From assembly GCA_947628185.1 (NCBI GenBank), contig CANQYW010000008.1, positions 3,354 through 67,353 of the forward strand: a DNA stretch of 64,000 nt, read 5' to 3'. A model generated the notes under the pieces. That model saw nothing but the letters and a program-made list of their open reading frames with translations, did no database searches and had not been told where the DNA came from. How positions within the stretch are numbered: the stretch's first letter is position 1; each line of letters begins with the position of its first letter. Below, piece after piece: positions 7,986 through 56,765 of this stretch. A program made the position numbers and the translations under genes. This stretch comes from an uncultured Oscillospiraceae bacterium (GTDB taxonomy: Bacteria > Bacillota > Clostridia > Oscillospirales > Oscillospiraceae).

Positions 7986-8567
7986 TTACGCCCCGGCGAA
8001 CTTGAAGATCATCCCCACCACAGCGGAGAGGGCGATAAAGCAGACGGGGTGGAGCTTTTTTGTGGGTCTCACGTACCGCGTGAGCAGTATGAGCGCCGCG
8101 CCGAGGATGACGGCCTTGTAGTTTAGGAGGTCGCCCAGGGCGTGGCTCTCGCGGAACGCCGGCATGATAAATACCTCCAGCGCCACGGAGACCCCGGCGG
8201 CGGCGATGAGCGCCACGGAGGCGGGCCGCAGGCCGTAGAACACCGACTTCACAAGCTTGCTCTCACCGAACTTTTTGAGCATCCTCGCTATTATGAGGAT
8301 GACTATTATCGAGGGCGCCACAAGGCCAATTGTCGCCACAACGGCCCCCGCGACACCGCCGGTGGTGTACCCCACGTATGTCGCCATATTCACCCCGATG
8401 GGTCCGGGCGTTGACTCACTGACCGCCAGCATGTCGTATATCTGCTGGGTGGTGAACCACCCGGTGCTCTCGCTCATCTGGTGGAGGAACGGGAGCGTCG
8501 CGAGGCCCCCGCCTATGGAGAAGAGGCCCGTGACAAAGAACTCATAAAATAGTCTTAAATAGATCAT
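7986..8567 (-). CDS. Chromate transporter (CHR) family protein, second half-size subunit
   Basis: MIYLRLFYEFFVTGLFSIGGGLATLPFL. ATG 8567 overlaps the upstream stop (ATGA). Confidence 0.8.
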   Translation of the reverse strand: MIYLRLFYEFFVTGLFSIGGGLATLPFLHQMSESTGWFTTQQIYDMLAVSESTPGPIGVNMATYVGYTTGGVAGAVVATIGLVAPSIIVILIIARMLKKFGESKLVKSVFYGLRPASVALIAAAGVSVALEVFIMPAFRESHALGDLLNYKAVILGAALILLTRYVRPTKKLHPVCFIALSAVVGMIFKFAGA

Positions 8568-9100
8568 TTCCTCGCCTCCCAAGCCTTTATCGCGCAGCCG
8601 GCGACGGCCACGCACAGCACGATGATTATTGGCGACAGGCTGAAAAACAGCGACACGCACATAACGATGCAGAATATCACCAAACAACACCTGTCCACAA
8701 CGGCGGACTTCCAGAGCTTAATAACGGAGTTGAGGATGAGCACACACACGCAGACCCTTATCCCGGCGAAGGCGTTTTTCACCACGGCGAGCTCGGAGAA
8801 ATTTGTGATTATCCCCGCGATGAGGGAGATTATCACGATGGAGGGGAAGACGACGCCCAGCGTCGCCACTATCCCGCCAACGGTGCCGGCCCTCTTCTGC
8901 CCTATGAACGTGGCCGTGTTCACCGCGATTATGCCCGGCGTACACTGGCCGATGGCGTAGTAGTCGGCCAGCTCCTCCTCAGTGGCCCAGCCGTACTTCT
9001 CCACCACCTCCCGCTGCAGCAGGGGCAGCATGGCGTATCCCCCGCCGAAGGTTAGTCCCCCGATCCTCGCAAAGGTGAGGAACATCTTAAGTAATTCCAT
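8564..9100 (-). CDS. Chromate transporter (CHR) family protein, first half-size subunit
   Basis: MELLKMFLTFARIGGLTFGGGYAMLPLL. ATG 9100 has a GGAGTGAG RBS; the track start at 9196 has none. Confidence 0.8.
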   Translation of the reverse strand: MELLKMFLTFARIGGLTFGGGYAMLPLLQREVVEKYGWATEEELADYYAIGQCTPGIIAVNTATFIGQKRAGTVGGIVATLGVVFPSIVIISLIAGIITNFSELAVVKNAFAGIRVCVCVLILNSVIKLWKSAVVDRCCLVIFCIVMCVSLFFSLSPIIIVLCVAVAGCAIKAWEARK

Positions 9101-9235
9101 ATAAGTCTCACTCCTTTTGACCTTTAGACGCATTATAGCAAAAATGAGCGGATTTGAAAACCTCAAAACGTCCAAATACCTGTGCCCTTCTGGCATTATT
9201 GCCGGTCACTCAGCCAATTATCGGGCATATATGAT

Positions 9236-9281
9236 TTATGTAAACCTAATTAATTATGTAAACTTATCAATTTATGTAAAC
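9236..9281. repeat. Three perfect direct copies of TTATGTAAAC at exactly 18-bp spacing
   Basis: Copies at 9236-9245, 9254-9263 and 9272-9281, in the divergent spacer between the chromate transporter gene and the giant gene. Confidence 0.9.
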
Positions 9282-9320
9282 CATTGTGCTCTCTCGCCGT
9301 GTTTAGATCCATATTAAATA

Positions 9321-9409: not shown

Positions 9410-9438
9410 TTGACTTTCATCCGTCACTCTGTTATCAT
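9410..9438 (+). promoter_or_regulatory. Sigma-A type promoter of the giant Cys-rich protein gene
   Basis: TTGACT (9410-9415), 17 nt, TATCAT (9433-9438). RBS AAGGAGG at 9464-9470 and ATG at 9477. Confidence 0.5.
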
Positions 9439-9476
9439 TATGACGTATGCCAAAATGCGATTTAAGGAGGAACCCT

Positions 9477-12400
9477 ATGAAGAGCATCAAGAGATTTTTT
9501 GCCGTCTTCCTCTGCGGGGTGATGCTGGTCTCCAGCACCGCCGTGCCGATCTACGCGGAGACGGCCCCCGAGGAACTGGGCCACGTACACGAGGATGAAG
9601 TCCCCGCCGAGCCGGGGCCGGAACCCTTTGAGGGCGACCTCGCGTCCCCCGCCGAGGAACCCGGGGAGCCCTCAACGGATGATGAACCGTCCCCGGGGCC
9701 AGCAGACGAGAGCAGTAAACCAATGATAACCGTCTATTCTGCCCAGGGCGGCCTAAAAGATGTTTTCTGCCTGGCCCCTGACTCCTCCAGCAGATACCCC
9801 AACACCGTCAGCGTCACGGTATCCGACCCCGACGGTCTCAGTGAGGTCACCATCGGCGGGAAGAAAGTTACCATTCCAAGTGATAATAATAAGACCATCA
9901 CGGTGACGATCACAGCGTCCTACATCCCCGCCGATAATAAGATGGCCATCACCGCGAAGGATTCAAGCGGCAACGAGGCCGCGTACACCGTCACTGTGTA
10001 CGCAAAGCACAAGTCCACCCCGGTGAGACTCTTTAACGAGGCCAACTGCAACACATTCGGTTTTAATAACCAGGCTGCATACTACTGTGAGCAGTGCCAC
10101 GGCATGGACATCTCTATGGCCATGCGCCCCACAAGTTACGCCAAGGGCCACAGCTTTGAGGAGTACAATAGGGGTATGGTGATCAAGCCGGACGCTGAGT
10201 TCACCGAGGTCACCCCTTGCGGAACGGAGACCCAAGTTAAGAAGTATGTCTGTGATACATGCGGCTACGCCGTTATGGAGGAGAACGCCGACCTCGGCGA
10301 GGACAGCGCGCACAAGTGGGAGCTCAAGTACGTAGCGCCTGACAAGACAAAAGGCGGCTACCGGCTCTATGAGTGCGCCGACTGCCACGCGGTGAAGGAC
10401 TGCGCCTCCATAAGCCAGCTCTGCCACATGGCGACCATCAAGGTCACGAAGGATCCCAACTGTGTCACCCAGGAGAACGGTGTCAGAAGTTACATATGCA
10501 TCACATGCGGTGAAGTCGTGGCCACCGACTCCCTCGCGTGGCAGCACAAGATGTCCCCCTGGGAAACCGTCAAACCGGCCGACTGCGTGAGCAATACACC
10601 GGGTCTGCGTCAGCGCCACTGCACCGTTGAGGGGTGCAACTACGTTGAGAGTCAGGAGATCTCCAGCCAGCACTCGTGGCTCATCAGCTACACCGTTGAT
10701 AAGGCGCCGACGTGCGTGGAGCCGGGCGTCAAGTCCCGGCACTGCAGCAAGTGCGGCGCCATCATGCCGGGGTCCGAGGAAACGATTCCCGCCACCGGCA
10801 GCCACAACTACGTGGACCACGACTCAAACTGCACCACCCAGAAACAGTGCTCCTCCTGCGGAGCTCCTGACCCCGAGGACGTTCCGCGGACATCGCACAA
10901 CCTCATGGAAATGAAGAACCTCACGCACCACTGGAAGGACTGCACTTACCCCGGGTGCGACTACAAAGAGGACGAGGAGGAGCACACCTACGGCCCCTAC
11001 ACCGTTGTGAACGACCTGCATCACCGCCGTTACTGCACGGTGTGCGGTCAGCAGAACTCCTTCTGGCACACCGCCGAGCAGAAACTTGACGACGGCAACT
11101 GCCTCACCCCCATCAAGTGCGAGGAGTGCGGCTATGTTTTCACGCCTGGGAAGAACGGCCACTCCTTTGACTCCGGCATTTGGATCTCCGACGAGACGCA
11201 CCACTGGAACACCTGTAGGAACACCGGGTGCAACGTGAAGGTCTCCTACGGCGAGCACCGGGCGGACACGGACTCCGACTGCACCCAGGGCATCTATTGT
11301 TACGTCTGCAAACGGGAAATTGTGAGTCCCACCCCCGAGCACACCTGGTCCGCCTGGGTCCTCAACAGCGAGAAAACCATGTACACGCGCCATTGTACCG
11401 TTGATGGGTGCTCCGTGGTGGAGACCGCTGACCACAAGCACACCTTCAGCAACTGGACGTCCACAGACGGCAAGACCCACTCCCGCGCCTGCACCGAGTG
11501 CGGCTTTGAGGAGACCGGGACCTGCAACGTCTCCCCCGACAACTCATGCCTCACCGCCACAACATGCGACACCTGCGGATACATAATTGAGGAGGCCCAG
11601 AGCTCCCACAACATGGTCTGGCACGATAACGGCGACGGCACCCACACCGGCCACTGCCAGAACACCGGCTGTCACGAGGAGATATCCGGCCAGCACACCT
11701 TTGGGGAATGGACCACTACCGGCACCGCGCACACCCGCGTCTGCTCCCTCTGCGGACTCACCGAGAGCGGCGAACATGAGTCAAATGAGGACGGCGACTG
11801 CTCCACCGAGGCCCTTTGCACGGTTTGCAACCGGGTCCTCACCGAGGCGCAGCCCCAGCACATCTACACGGACTGGACGTCCGACCCGGAGGACTACTAT
11901 TACCATTACCGCACATGCACGAACCCCGGCTGCACCCACCGGGAGACTGCCGCCCACAGCGGCACGGACGACGGCGACTGCTCCACGGGGCTTGAGTGCG
12001 ACGTCTGCGGTATGATGTACATCGCCCCCGAGCCCCATCACCCGGACGGCGAGTTCTTCAGCGACGCCAGCGGGCACTACCAGTACTGCTCTCACCCCGG
12101 CTGTACAAAGACCGTCACATACCCCCACATGCTGGTGAACGACGGCGACAGCGACTGCACCACCCCCACCTATTGCTCCGTCTGCGGCTATGTGGCCGTG
12201 GAGGGCAGCGGGGGCCACAACTGGTCTAATTGGGAGGCCACGGCCGACGGCACCGGCCACCACAAGCGGTGCCTCAATGAGAACTGTTCCGCCGCCACCT
12301 CCGCCGAGGGCCACTCCGGGGCCGCTACATGCGCCGGCCCCGCTGTCTGCGGCGAGTGCGGGTTGGAATACGGCGGCAAGGACCCCACGAACCACACCGG

Positions 12401-15400
12401 CGGCACCGAGGTCAGGGGGTATCTGGAGCCCACCGAGGACAGCGAGGGCTACACCGGCGACACGTACTGCCTCGGCTGTGAGACGGTAATAGAGAAGGGC
12501 AAGAGCATACCCGCCACGCCCCACTCCACCCACAACTTCGGCTCCGCCTGGCACACCGACAGCCTCCACCACTGGAAGGAGTGCGTGAAGTGCGGCACCA
12601 GGAATGAGGAGGGCGAACACGTCTTCGGGAGCCTCTATTCCGACGCCGCCGGTCACTTCAAAGTCTGCACCGTCTGCGGCTATGTTGAGCGGCACGACCA
12701 CTCCCCCGCCGCGGACGATAACGACTGCACCACCCCCACCCTCTGCACAGAGTGCGGGTACGCCGTAGTCGAGGCGAAGGAGACCCATGACTTCTCTGGC
12801 GGCGCCGTCGGAGACCAGGAGGGTCACCGCTACATCTGCCAAAATCCCGACTGTACTGTTAAGAGCGGCGTTGAGGAACACTCCGGCGGCAGCGCCACAT
12901 GTTTCACTCTGGCCGTCTGCCAGGTCTGCGGCTCCGCCTACGGCGAGCTTGACAGCTCCAACCACGTGGGCGGTCAGGTGGTTCTGGGCTATAGGGATCC
13001 CACGGACCTGGACGAGGGCTACACCGGGGACGGCTACTGCCTCAGCTGCGGCGCCGTGCTCCTCACGGGTCGCGCCATCCCCACCGGTGAACGTGAGCAC
13101 CCGGAGACGGAGATCGAATACGATGAGAACCACTGCTGGAAGTCATGCACCCACTGCGGTATGCGCGAGTCCGGGTCATACCAGGTCCACTCCTACCTCT
13201 CCGTGAGTTTTAGCGGCGCAATGATCGCCTATTCCACCGCCTCCGACGTGGAGACCTGTACGAACTGCGGGAACGTAAACCCCTACTCCGGGCACGAGCA
13301 CAACTTCTCCGCCCCCGAGGTACGCCTCCAGCCCACCTGCGGCGACGCCGGTATGACCGTCATGACCTGCTCCATATGCGGCGCGAATTTCGCCGAGGAG
13401 ATCGCGTCCACCGGGGAGCACAACTGGGACGGCGGCGTGAACGTGAAATACCCCAACTGCATCGAGGACGGCGAGATCCTGCACACCTGTACTGTGTGCG
13501 GTGAGCACAGGCGCGAGATAGTTCCCAGCGACCCCCAGGCCCACACTTGGGATGAGGGCACAGTCATAACCCCCGCCCTCGGCGAGACCGACGGCGAGAT
13601 GCTATTCACCTGCTTAGTCTGCGGCGACACCCACACCGCCGTCATTCCCGCCACCGGCGAACACACCTGGGGACAGGGCGTCGTCACCAAGGCCGCCGAC
13701 TGCACCAATACGGGCATAATGACTTACACCTGCGAGGTGTGCGGCACGGAAAAGACCGAGGTAATCCCCGTGGACCTCGACGCCCACGTCTACGGCCAGT
13801 GGATGTCAGACCCTGATGATTATGTAAATCACTACCGCCTCTGCAAGTACGACACCTGCCGCCACAGGGACACCGCCCCCCACTCCGGGCACGACGACGG
13901 GAACTGCGAGACCCCGGTGTTCTGCCAGGACTGCGGGTTTGAATTTGTGAGGGCGAAGTCGCACAGCCCCGCGGGCCAGTGGTACTGGGACGACGAGACG
14001 CACTACCAGCACTGTGAGAATCTCGACCACGACGGCAACCCCTGCACCGGCACCGTGGGCTACGCCCACATACCCGTCACTGACGACGATAGTTGTCTCA
14101 CCGGCGTCCACTGTCAGCAGACGGGCTGCGGATATGTCTTCTACGAGGGGCAGTCCCAGCACAACTGGTCGGCCTGGGAGCCCACAGCCGATGGCACTGG
14201 CCACACCCGCCACTGTCTCAATGAGTCCTGCAAGGCAACTGAGACGGAAACTCACACCGGCGGCACCGCCACATGCACCGATAGCGCCGTCTGCGCCCAG
14301 TGTAACGCCCACTACGGCGAACCCGACCCCGCGAACCACGCCTACCCAACGGAGCTCCGGGACTACAAGGCCCCCACGGACTGGGAGCCCGGTTACTCCG
14401 GGGATCTCTACTGCACAGGCTGCGGCGCGCTGGTGGAGGCGGGCCACGAGCTGCCGCCTGTGGACCACCAGCACGTCTACAGCGAGGAATGGAGTTCCGA
14501 CGGCACGAACCACTGGCACCAGTGCACCGTGTGCGGCGCTATAGATGAGGGCTCCGTCACCGCCCACACCTTCGGCGAGTGGACTGCGGACGCGGAGGGC
14601 CACGCCCACTCCTGCACAGTCTGCGGCCACGAGGAGAAGTACCTCCACAGCGCCGGGGACGACGACGGCAACTGCACCACCGGGGTACTCTGCGAGGTGT
14701 GCCAGTACGTCTTAGTGGCGCCAATGGAGCACGACTTCGGCGGTATCCCCATCGGCACCCCCTCTGGCCACTACCACCTCTGCCAGAACCCCGGCTGTAC
14801 CGCAAAGGGCGAGCTCGAGAGTCACACCGGCGGCACCGCCACATGTTACGCCAAGGCCATGTGCTCCGTCTGCGCCGTGGCCTACGGTGGGCTCGACCCC
14901 GAAAATCACGCCGGCGGCGAGATCGTCATAGGCTACATGGACGCCACCGTCACCGAGCCCGGTTACACCGGCGATGTCATCTGCCTCGGCTGCGGGGCGG
15001 TACTCTCAAAGGGGCAGGAGATCCCCGCCGGTGAACGGGAGCACGACTACGTCTGGGACCACGACGGGCAGAACCACTGGAGAGACTGTTCCCGCTGCGG
15101 GCAGCGCCTGGAGGAGTCCTTCGGGCCCCACAGCTACGGCGATGACGGCATCTGCACCGTCTGCGGCGCCTCCGACCCGTTCTTCGGGCACACCCACACC
15201 TGGAGTGGATACACTGTGGACGAGGAGCCCACGTGCGTCGAGACCGGCCTCGCGCACCGCAACTGCTCCCTGTGCAGCGCCCACGAGGTGGTGTATATCC
15301 CGGCCACAGGCAAACACGTCTTCAAGGACGGCCGGTGCACCATGTGCGGCATTCTGGAGCCCTCCGACCTGCCCCAGTCGCCTGAGACTTACGATAGGTT

Positions 15401-15491
15401 CCCCGGCATAGCCCTCCTCTCCGCCTCCGCCCTGCTGGCCGGCGGCCTGGGACTTGTCCTCGTCTCCCGCAGACGCAGAAGGAGCAGATAA
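9477..15491 (+). CDS. Giant exported, C-terminally membrane-anchored Cys/His-rich modular repeat protein (2004 aa); no family recognised
   Basis: Uninterrupted 6-kb ORF with a strong RBS before ATG 9477. Signal peptide MKSIKRFFAVFLCGVMLVSSTAVPIYA/ET, then an acidic Pro/Glu linker and one Ig-like beta segment. About 1750 aa of CxxCG/Cx4C + His modules follow. The C-terminus is a TM helix plus RRRRRSR. It has its own terminator. Confidence 0.9.
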   Translation: MKSIKRFFAVFLCGVMLVSSTAVPIYAETAPEELGHVHEDEVPAEPGPEPFEGDLASPAEEPGEPSTDDEPSPGPADESSKPMITVYSAQGGLKDVFCLAPDSSSRYPNTVSVTVSDPDGLSEVTIGGKKVTIPSDNNKTITVTITASYIPADNKMAITAKDSSGNEAAYTVTVYAKHKSTPVRLFNEANCNTFGFNNQAAYYCEQCHGMDISMAMRPTSYAKGHSFEEYNRGMVIKPDAEFTEVTPCGTETQVKKYVCDTCGYAVMEENADLGEDSAHKWELKYVAPDKTKGGYRLYECADCHAVKDCASISQLCHMATIKVTKDPNCVTQENGVRSYICITCGEVVATDSLAWQHKMSPWETVKPADCVSNTPGLRQRHCTVEGCNYVESQEISSQHSWLISYTVDKAPTCVEPGVKSRHCSKCGAIMPGSEETIPATGSHNYVDHDSNCTTQKQCSSCGAPDPEDVPRTSHNLMEMKNLTHHWKDCTYPGCDYKEDEEEHTYGPYTVVNDLHHRRYCTVCGQQNSFWHTAEQKLDDGNCLTPIKCEECGYVFTPGKNGHSFDSGIWISDETHHWNTCRNTGCNVKVSYGEHRADTDSDCTQGIYCYVCKREIVSPTPEHTWSAWVLNSEKTMYTRHCTVDGCSVVETADHKHTFSNWTSTDGKTHSRACTECGFEETGTCNVSPDNSCLTATTCDTCGYIIEEAQSSHNMVWHDNGDGTHTGHCQNTGCHEEISGQHTFGEWTTTGTAHTRVCSLCGLTESGEHESNEDGDCSTEALCTVCNRVLTEAQPQHIYTDWTSDPEDYYYHYRTCTNPGCTHRETAAHSGTDDGDCSTGLECDVCGMMYIAPEPHHPDGEFFSDASGHYQYCSHPGCTKTVTYPHMLVNDGDSDCTTPTYCSVCGYVAVEGSGGHNWSNWEATADGTGHHKRCLNENCSAATSAEGHSGAATCAGPAVCGECGLEYGGKDPTNHTGGTEVRGYLEPTEDSEGYTGDTYCLGCETVIEKGKSIPATPHSTHNFGSAWHTDSLHHWKECVKCGTRNEEGEHVFGSLYSDAAGHFKVCTVCGYVERHDHSPAADDNDCTTPTLCTECGYAVVEAKETHDFSGGAVGDQEGHRYICQNPDCTVKSGVEEHSGGSATCFTLAVCQVCGSAYGELDSSNHVGGQVVLGYRDPTDLDEGYTGDGYCLSCGAVLLTGRAIPTGEREHPETEIEYDENHCWKSCTHCGMRESGSYQVHSYLSVSFSGAMIAYSTASDVETCTNCGNVNPYSGHEHNFSAPEVRLQPTCGDAGMTVMTCSICGANFAEEIASTGEHNWDGGVNVKYPNCIEDGEILHTCTVCGEHRREIVPSDPQAHTWDEGTVITPALGETDGEMLFTCLVCGDTHTAVIPATGEHTWGQGVVTKAADCTNTGIMTYTCEVCGTEKTEVIPVDLDAHVYGQWMSDPDDYVNHYRLCKYDTCRHRDTAPHSGHDDGNCETPVFCQDCGFEFVRAKSHSPAGQWYWDDETHYQHCENLDHDGNPCTGTVGYAHIPVTDDDSCLTGVHCQQTGCGYVFYEGQSQHNWSAWEPTADGTGHTRHCLNESCKATETETHTGGTATCTDSAVCAQCNAHYGEPDPANHAYPTELRDYKAPTDWEPGYSGDLYCTGCGALVEAGHELPPVDHQHVYSEEWSSDGTNHWHQCTVCGAIDEGSVTAHTFGEWTADAEGHAHSCTVCGHEEKYLHSAGDDDGNCTTGVLCEVCQYVLVAPMEHDFGGIPIGTPSGHYHLCQNPGCTAKGELESHTGGTATCYAKAMCSVCAVAYGGLDPENHAGGEIVIGYMDATVTEPGYTGDVICLGCGAVLSKGQEIPAGEREHDYVWDHDGQNHWRDCSRCGQRLEESFGPHSYGDDGICTVCGASDPFFGHTHTWSGYTVDEEPTCVETGLAHRNCSLCSAHEVVYIPATGKHVFKDGRCTMCGILEPSDLPQSPETYDRFPGIALLSASALLAGGLGLVLVSRRRRRSR

Positions 15492-15525: not shown

Positions 15526-15568
15526 GCACCCGGCGCCCTCTAAATCAGGCGCCGGGTGCTGTTTTTTT
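15526..15568 (+). terminator. Rho-independent terminator of the giant gene
   Basis: GCACCCGGCGCC / GGCGCCGGGTGC 12-bp stem followed by TGTTTTTTT. Confidence 0.85.
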
Positions 15569-15600
15569 GAAACTATATCGCGAAAAACTTTCCAGTCTAC

Positions 15601-33851: not shown

Positions 33852-33939
33852 GCGCGAGTGGTGGAATTGGTAGACTCGCTAGATTCAGGTTCTAGTGTGC
33901 ATTACGCACGTGGGGGTTCGAGTCCCCCCTCGCGCACCA
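33852..33939 (+). tRNA. tRNA-Leu (anticodon CAG), CCA encoded
   Basis: Folded by hand: acceptor GCGCGAG/CTCGCGC, anticodon arm CTAGA-TTCAGGT-TCTAG, long variable arm, T-arm GGGGG-TTCGAGT-CCCCC. Confidence 0.9.
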
Positions 33940-44383: not shown

Positions 44384-44460
44384 CCGGGTGTGGCGAAGTT
44401 TGGTATCGCGCTTGAATGGGGTTCAAGAGGCCGCTGGTTCGAATCCAGTCACTCGGACCA
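44384..44460 (+). tRNA. tRNA-Pro (anticodon GGG), CCA encoded
   Basis: Folded by hand: acceptor CCGGGTG/CACTCGG (one G-U pair), anticodon arm CTTGA-ATGGGGT-TCAAG, T-arm GCTGG-TTCGAAT-CCAGT. Confidence 0.88.
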
Positions 44461-56691: not shown

Positions 56692-56765
56692 TGGCAGCGG
56701 GAGAAGGATTCGAACCCTCACATACGGAGTCAGAGTCCGCTGTGCTACCTTTACACAATCCCGCT
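56692..56765 (-). tRNA. tRNA-Gln (anticodon CTG), CCA encoded
   Basis: Folded by hand: acceptor AGCGGGA/TCCCGCT, anticodon arm GCGGA-CTCTGAC-TCCGT, T-arm GAGGG-TTCGAAT-CCTTC. Hairpin AAGGACCCT...AGGGTCCTT lies downstream (56644-56689). Confidence 0.88.

Follow-up and report, generated by a model that had tools for sequence, protein, structure and literature searches.

What is the role of an exported protein that consists, over ~90% of its length, of small Cys/His modules? The question is raised by a gene for a product of 2004 amino acids (aa) on contig CANQYW010000008.1 from an uncultured Oscillospiraceae bacterium, of which a stretch of 64,000 nucleotides (nt), referred to here as the window, was analysed. 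An earlier note, made from the letters of the sequence alone, had seen in it about 50 modules of four types, had preferred four-ligand metal sites to disulfide knots, and had listed a rigid stalk among the possible functions. The answer favoured here, and held to be reasonably likely, is that the protein is a surface-anchored rod, metal-stiffened through predicted zinc sites, which displays an N-terminal immunoglobulin (Ig)-like domain. Feature coordinates are given in Table 1.

Manual parsing of aa 178–1965 yielded 54 contiguous modules, 18–54 aa long, with no linkers between them and His last in each. A complete ligand set was present in 44/54 modules, one site per ~33 residues, and 134/136 Cys of this region occupied ligand positions. 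The whole protein contains 138 Cys (6.9%) and 118 His (5.9%), with 40 CxxC and 13 Cx4C knuckles, 31 of the former being CxxCG; the hand counts of the earlier note, 138 Cys and 53 knuckles, were exact. These figures lie far above those obtained from 2000 composition-preserving shuffles of aa 178–1965, in which CxxC occurred 10.3±3.0 times (maximum 22, versus 40 in the protein), CxxCG 1.1 times on average (maximum 6, versus 31), and strict four-ligand modules 4.5±1.8 times (maximum 10, versus 35 observed). All four module types of the earlier note were present. The ‘a’ class (HCCH) follows the consensus H.[FYW]..W..D...H...C-x2/4-C...H, and its 18 HCCH modules have just two Cys, 2 or 4 residues apart, together with two invariant His. 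The ‘b/c’ class (CCCH) has C-x5-C-x2-CG or C-x9-12-C-x2-CG and frequently ends in IPATGH. Profile alignment with hhalign linked b-type to c-type modules (94% probability, E 1e-7) and gave no demonstrable link between a-type and b/c modules, the knuckle alone aligning at ~30% probability. Composite ‘d’ units, of ~70–73 aa each, occur in four copies. The array is acidic (D+E 289 versus K+R 106).

A 13-module block is present in two copies, ~50% identical, as seen on self-alignment (aa 796–1016 against aa 1438–1664, 197 bits, 50% identity; aa 925–1215 against aa 1573–1857, 275 bits). TRF detected no tandem DNA repeats in 9477–15491, and dispersed direct repeats within the gene were just 60–77% identical over 35–67 nt. 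Since there is no tandem repeat at the DNA level, the 13-module duplication is an old one.

With so many CxxC motifs, two of them CxxCH (positions 204 and 300), the array might be taken for an extracellular multihaem cytochrome or an iron-sulfur electron wire, a proposal to which we give practically no chance. Only 2/40 CxxC precede His, and the sites hold His with only 2–3 Cys, one site per module; moreover, no cytochrome-maturation or Fe-S genes lie near the gene, and no Pfam cytochrome match was obtained. For the multihaem cytochrome, the count of two CxxCH amounts to effective refutation. One of these two motifs lies in module 3 (aa 280–317, nt 10314–10427; KWELKYVAPDKTKGGYRLYECADCHAVKDCASISQLCH), which is atypical in having four Cys and two His, and which holds Cys 309 and Cys 316, the only two Cys outside the regular ligand scheme. 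Its equivalent is kept in the relatives P0071, P0072 and P0003 (for example ‘YYECKDCGAVKDAVALSALGH’ in P0071).

Conservation picks out the ligands. An exhaustive phmmer search with aa 400–1215 against 1.84 billion representative sequences recovered a collinear ortholog, P0071 (1565 aa, 48% identity), in which 149/154 ligand residues (97%) were identical to the query, compared with 43% of other positions; His residues that are not ligands were conserved at only 9/31 positions. By this comparison, the Cys/His ligands are under strong purifying selection. Residue 683 is Cys in the query and His in P0071, and the same exchange recurs among 218 relatives, where the first ligand (L1) of a-type modules was His 667 times and Cys 6 times, and the ligand ahead of b-type modules was His 557 times and Cys 21 times. 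Odd Cys counts together with Cys/His exchange argue for metal ligands rather than disulfides. A metal-free array of disulfide-stabilised Cys-rich repeats, of EGF- or knottin-like type, is accordingly considered very improbable: exported proteins classically use disulfides, this one is 6.9% Cys, and the zinc sites of the family are known from models only, but 25 modules combine an odd number of Cys (three) with an invariant His, another 18 pair their two closely spaced Cys with two invariant His, and the ligand His are conserved like the Cys. Furthermore, the host is judged to be an anaerobic gut bacterium, and the homologous IgA protease described below has no disulfides in its experimental structures or models despite 24 Cys (PMC12237041). 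The preference of the earlier note for four-ligand metal sites is thus borne out as far as sequence and homology can do so.

The alignment with P0071 is interrupted by gaps spanning query aa ~1440–1906 (nt ~13794–15194), where the whole second copy of the 13-module block is missing, 15 modules in all; module number therefore varies between orthologs by a 15-module block. A pseudogene was considered and rejected, as the 6-kb frame is intact and its ligands are strongly constrained.

That note could name no family for the modules, and the databases bear it out in part. Scans of Pfam (2025) and NCBIfam (2026) with the query and seven relatives gave nothing above cut-off, weak Pfam matches to DUF7838, the TFIIB zinc-ribbon and Big-type domains all being sub-threshold, and the precomputed Pfam field was empty both for the query and for P0019, a relative made of modules only. 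PF26918 and PF26182, which are listed for some relatives and absent from the Pfam copy used, were rejected as candidates for the Cys modules because P0019 and the query have no precomputed Pfam domains. However, a described homolog does exist outside Pfam and NCBIfam. A phmmer search of PDB sequences gave a sole match, to the Thomasclavelia ramosa immunoglobulin A (IgA) protease 9qa6_A (E=3.4e-9), in two stretches, in ZBD1 and ZBD2, and a profile of modules 19–25 with relatives matched the same chain at E=1e-10 in three stretches: a c-type module (ATCTTAGNSAYYTCDGC), an a-type module (HWHECTVAGC...H) and ZBD2. Together these cover ZBD1 subdomains I and II.

The M64 IgA protease (IgAse or ThomasA, UniProt Q9AES2) was the subject of two papers in 2025, in which the domains carry different names, ZBD1/ZBD2 (PMC12237041) being CTD2/CTD4 (PMC12415215). 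From models and small-angle X-ray scattering (SAXS), they were presented as a new elongated metal-binding ‘periscope’ fold, each subdomain a three-stranded antiparallel sheet, with tetrahedral zinc sites predicted at subdomain interfaces (2His+2Cys, plus one 3Cys+1His); ZBD1, of 129 residues and three subdomains, is ~110 Å long (PMC12237041, PMC12415215). SAXS of isolated CTD2 agrees with the elongated model, and a metal-associated ‘periscope’ stalk was proposed (PMC12415215). Literature searches on such modules yielded nothing beyond papers on the T. ramosa IgA protease. The 2004-aa protein shares with ZBD1/ZBD2 both ligand patterns, the motifs ‘W.sD..HW..C...GC....H’ and ‘ATC...G.....C..CG’, a small beta sheet per module, and an elongated stalk as proposed role (PMC12237041, PMC12415215), which is also the stalk function suggested in the earlier note. 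Sec export, a C-terminal SPxTG-type signal, a transmembrane (TM) helix and a charged tail are likewise common to both proteins. They differ in scale and setting: in IgAse, five modules form two short domains on either side of a beta-barrel, following a protease, whereas here there are 54 modules and no enzyme domain. Beyond what IgAse has, the 2004-aa protein contains a short ‘b’ module (C-x5-C-x2-C) and a composite ‘d’ unit of ~72 aa, and the C-terminal motif, SPQTG in IgAse (PMC12237041), is here SPETY. Judged by these alignments, the modules belong to a family described in one enzyme in 2025 from models and lacking a database entry, and the 2004-aa protein is a stalk-only, 54-module form of it.

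The predicted structure is in keeping with this homology. An AlphaFold2 (AF2) model of aa 796–1016, built from a 26-row alignment of paralogous and homologous segments, had a mean predicted local distance difference test score (pLDDT) of 87.1 and contained short beta strands only. When the DSSP string was mapped onto the modules, the CxxC/Cx4C knuckle fell at a beta turn and the terminal His right after the last strand. The a-type module has three strands, strand 2 bearing L1 His and, four residues away, L2 Cys, with L3 Cys in the turn after strand 2 and L4 His just past strand 3; the b-type module is a hairpin with the CxxC knuckle at its turn. The modules probably bind zinc. A likeness to zinc ribbons or treble clefs, also put forward in the earlier note, was not upheld: although the model is confidently all-beta, Foldseek found nothing in the PDB at E≤1e-3, its matches to NrdR and Rpb9 being insignificant (E>1, probability ≤0.07). 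In profile searches, RpoM and eL37 were weak and non-significant, and a TFIIB zinc ribbon was sub-threshold in the relative P0090. ZBD1 subdomain I has been credited with a distant resemblance to the TFIIS C-terminal domain (PMC12237041). The modules resemble classical zinc ribbons and knuckles (TFIIS, TFIIB, Rpb9, NrdR N-terminal domains) in having a CxxC(G) knuckle at a beta turn with other ligands on adjacent strands. However, the classical domains have two CxxC knuckles from two hairpins, whereas these modules have one knuckle and, routinely, a His ligand, and are extracellular, tandem and linker-free. With one knuckle per module, no Pfam zinc-ribbon match past cut-off and no significant Foldseek match, the classical zinc ribbon was rejected.

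The remainder of the protein has the layout of a surface protein, and its N-terminal parts were as the earlier note had described them. The Sec signal peptide has a basic n-region, a hydrophobic core and an IYA cleavage-type end, without a lipobox, and the orthologs P0071 and P0003 have equivalent N-termini. After an acidic linker comes the Ig-like domain, which recurred in 20 relatives on jackhmmer searching, its conserved His always just ahead of the first module; in some other relatives the domain is internal and resembles a stalk element. Pfam matches to Glucodextran_B, Big_9 and Big_7 were all sub-threshold, and a homolog search by word index, with the Ig-like domain as sole query, returned no matches. 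An AF2 model of aa 78–320 (8-row alignment) was poor (mean pLDDT 52.8), with the Ig-like part alone usable (7 strands, pLDDT 70–89); from this mediocre model, Foldseek returned generic SiiE BIg, alpha2-macroglobulin MG and PKD domains for the Ig-like part (E 2e-3 to 4e-2).

The C-terminus carries a candidate anchor signal that the earlier note had overlooked: SPETY, then a hydrophobic segment FPGIALLSASALLAGGLGLVLVS, then RRRRRSR, the last two as in a cell wall sorting signal. About 48/218 relatives have xPxTG, a TM helix and a basic tail, SPQTG being the commonest motif and APKTG and IPNTG also occurring. The ortholog P0071 has SPQTA, and its lineage, with the query, seems to use a residue other than Gly after Thr. 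A different ending was seen in a module-rich subgroup of 2500–3300 aa (P0002, P0004, P0005–P0009, P0011, P0012, P0014, P0016, P0030, P0053 and P0055), whose members finish in a conserved Cys/His-rich amphipathic tail (‘..CFCHGTGFRALVYRFVRLIWKLFKVNQYCTCGAKHW’, ‘..HCICHSFLGGFWISILNMIYRLFGRKIVCCYDMFATHGDRLIYGK’) with no sortase signal; this tail may represent another means of anchoring or sorting that has not been described.

On the favoured reading, the protein would be exported by Sec and held at the cell surface by its C-terminus. Each module would be a two- to three-stranded antiparallel beta unit with almost no hydrophobic core, held by one tetrahedral metal ion, most likely Zn2+, with HCCH or CCCH ligands, which would also lock the neighbouring module. 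As the His that serves as last ligand directly abuts the next module, the metal sites would sit at module junctions, stapling the mini-sheets into a semi-rigid chain. Scaled from the ~110 Å of the 129 residues and three modules of ZBD1, the result would be a long acidic rod of ~150–200 nm if fully extended, projecting the acidic segment and the single Ig-like domain far from the cell wall in the manner of fibrillar adhesins and periscope-type stalks; the tip, and not the rod, would be the functional end.

Fibrillar adhesins and Periscope proteins (SasG, Aap; PMC8286594, PMC9704523) offer the closest comparison in architecture. As in these proteins, a signal peptide and an N-terminal non-repeat domain are followed by a long stalk of tandem small beta-rich domains without a normal hydrophobic core, and by a C-terminal wall or membrane anchor, here the TM helix and basic tail; in its stalk and anchor the protein agrees with the fibrillar adhesins. 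Module number differs between orthologs in both cases. The modules here are unrelated in sequence to G5/E, Big and FN3 domains, and the proposed stabilisation is by Cys/His metal sites. A classical Periscope protein was rejected, as the near-identical DNA tandem repeats that define that group are absent; for the same reason, rapid length switching is not expected.

Several observations weigh against a metal-stiffened, anchored rod with a functional tip. The Tyr of SPETY stands where sortases normally need Gly or Ala, and a scan for the sortase TLxTC signature in all frames of the 64-kb window, which covered the window only, found no sortase gene; because of this deviation and this absence, anchoring may be by the TM helix only, and the anchor is best described as either a membrane helix or a sortase-type wall linkage. 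One ligand is missing from 10/54 modules, including all four GYTGD ‘d2’ modules, so that a complete set of four ligands is not possible at every junction. The metal sites of the IgAse ZBDs come from AI models and SAXS only, ‘pending experimental validation’ (PMC12237041, PMC12415215), and the ZBD1-BB8-ZBD2 linkers are flexible by SAXS (PMC12237041), which means that a chain of 54 modules is not necessarily straight. In neither of the two nearest species representatives is there a syntenic ortholog near recG, synteny stopping after murJ. Finally, in contrast to fibrillar adhesins, Pfam and Foldseek gave only a generic Ig-like fold at the tip and revealed no adhesive domain whose ligand is known.

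This last point could also be taken to mean that the array itself is the working surface, a long multivalent binder of mucin, immunoglobulin, dietary polysaccharide or bacteria through variable loops, with the Ig-like domain merely another stalk element, which its internal position in other relatives would suit. The existence of module-only relatives such as P0019, and the fast divergence off the ligands (43% identity to the ortholog, 41–50% between paralogous blocks), are further points for such a binder. It is nevertheless thought unlikely: IgAse can recognise and cleave its substrate without the homologous domains (PMC12237041), the modules are spacer-like between functional domains (LRR, lectin, glycosidase, dockerin) in many relatives, and, apart from the ligands and a few Gly, Trp and Asp, the module consensus shows no patch of conserved surface.

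Less probable still is that metal handling or redox sensing is the main role, the ~45–54 sites storing or buffering zinc (or iron) outside the cell, or serving as a switch that responds to redox state or zinc, its thiolates giving up metal and the stalk collapsing upon oxidation or zinc starvation. Thiolate-rich sites are intrinsically sensitive to oxidation, the site density is very high, with 44 sites complete, and the host is judged a gut anaerobe; all three would fit. However, full CCCH or HCCH coordination is typical of tight structural zinc rather than of exchangeable storage, no zinc transporter, Zur-type regulator or redox partner was found beside the gene or its homolog P0003, and a signal peptide, tip domain and anchor make up the architecture of a surface stalk. 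The modules are also embedded in many unrelated enzymes and adhesins.

The favoured reading, a rod that holds an Ig-like domain away from the cell, has a more speculative extension, in our opinion rather doubtful, by which the rod would be a metal-dependent switch whose extension and tip exposure are governed by extracellular zinc and redox state. Loss of the metal to oxidants, or to zinc sequestration by the host (as with calprotectin), would then make the chain collapse or loosen; thousands of surface proteins of gut Clostridia would contain a passive environmental sensor and at once form a considerable store of zinc outside the cell.

The design is not rare. The exhaustive search found 5030 related clusters at E≤1e-3, of which 1841 were at ≤1e-10 and 253 at ≤1e-30, the module being unannotated in Pfam and NCBIfam throughout, and some carried up to 144 knuckles, so that the supposition of the earlier note that such a protein would be unusual on the surface of a strict anaerobe does not stand; from these matches, the module design is common in surface proteins of gut Clostridia. 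Named family members come from Oscillospiraceae and Eubacteriales metagenome-assembled genomes (MAGs) and are annotated as ‘hypothetical protein’ or by their other domains. The domains seen beside the modules in relatives are BspA-type leucine-rich repeats (LRR), Big_2, FN3, Flg_new, ricin-lectin, SLH and dockerin; several relatives consist of modules only. The largest knuckle count belongs to P0178 (4479 aa, 7.7% Cys), with almost three times as many modules as the query, which is therefore not the extreme of its family. A scan of genome contigs with the 2004-aa protein found no relative in GTDB species representatives.

Extracellular proteins usually owe their stiffness to disulfides, calcium or isopeptide bonds. 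Holding a stalk together through Cys/His zinc-type sites, in their dozens, would be another way, and one that suits the reducing lumen of the gut. The module, previously seen in models of a single IgA protease with five copies, here makes up an entire array of ~1800 residues. Defining the family would give an annotation to a large set of surface proteins that are now called ‘hypothetical’ in Oscillospiraceae and in other Clostridia of gut and rumen. For metal stoichiometry and structure, the 2004-aa protein or the 556-aa relative P0090 would be a convenient pure-module substrate. Questions are also raised about the zinc demand of such bacteria, and about whether their surface proteins are put out of action by oxidative stress or by the nutritional immunity of the host.

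The promoter, strong ribosome-binding site (RBS) and terminator reported in the earlier note were all found (Table 1), as was the stand-alone setting of the gene. The start at 9477 is preferred over an in-frame ATG at 9447 because of the position of the RBS, and the identical NCBI protein P0001 is likewise 2004 aa.

Table 1. Features of the gene and its product (window coordinates).
Feature	Position (nt)	Strand	Basis or remark
Sigma-70-type promoter-like site, TTGACT + 17-nt spacer + TG-extended TATCAT	9410..9438	+	10/12 consensus matches
RBS AAGGAGG, 6 nt before ATG 9477	9464..9470	+	Read from sequence
Coding sequence, 2004-aa surface protein	9477..15491 (incl. stop codon)	+	Open reading frame (ORF); product identical to NCBI protein P0001
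Sec signal peptide, aa 1–27 (MKSIKRFFAVFLCGVMLVSSTAVPIYA)	9477..9557	+	Read from sequence
Acidic Pro/Glu-rich low-complexity linker, aa 28–80	9558..9716	+	Counterparts in P0003, P0071, P0072
Ig-like beta-sandwich domain, aa 81–177, conserved His at end	9717..10007	+	Motif ..VSD..GL..V.I.G....A.D.SGN....V.V
Array of 54 contiguous Cys/His modules, aa 178–1965	10008..15371	+	25 CCCH, 18 HCCH, 1 HCCC, 10 one ligand short
Superrepeat copy 1, aa 796–1208, modules 19–31 incl. two ‘d’ units	11862..13100	+	Self-alignment
Superrepeat copy 2, aa 1438–1856, modules 38–50	13788..15044	+	Self-alignment; missing from ortholog P0071
Sortase-motif-like pentapeptide SPETY, aa 1968–1972	15378..15392	+	Aligns with SPQTG/SPQTA of relatives
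Hydrophobic helix, aa 1975–1997 (23 residues), and tail RRRRRSR, aa 1998–2004	15399..15488	+	Read from sequence
Bidirectional intrinsic-terminator-like hairpin, 12–13 bp GC-rich stem, T-runs on both strands	15526..15569	.	Hairpin proper 15526–15559

The gene is flanked by housekeeping genes unrelated to it, which encode two chromate-transporter halves, two flavodoxins, an M19 dipeptidase, a MurJ-like flippase and RecG; no sortase or maturation gene is among them. The homolog P0003 is also encoded by a stand-alone gene, with other neighbours. RecG of the window is 73–74% identical to RecGs of uncultured Oscillospiraceae gut MAGs; by its relatives, the source is an uncultured gut or rumen-type member of the Oscillospiraceae, and the host is judged a gut anaerobe on the same grounds. 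Besides tRNA genes for Leu-CAG (33852–33939), Pro-GGG (44384–44460) and Gln-CTG (56692–56765), no Rfam family reached its gathering threshold in the 64-kb window.

Upstream on the minus strand, two adjacent, apparently overlapping ORFs (7986–8690 and 8564–9196) have one Chromate_transp (PF02417) domain each; by this domain layout, 7986–9196 encodes a split two-gene ChrA-type chromate transporter, not the fused form. The chromate-transporter gene that ends at 9196 is divergent from the gene for the 2004-aa protein, and in the intergenic region separating the two a 13-nt motif occurs three times within 9234–9282 (ATTTATGTAAACC, AATTATGTAAACT, ATTTATGTAAACC) at a spacing of exactly 18 nt. The trio overlaps two minus-strand promoter-like sites (TTTACA at 9280 and 9244), and its copies look like iterated operator sites for some regulator.

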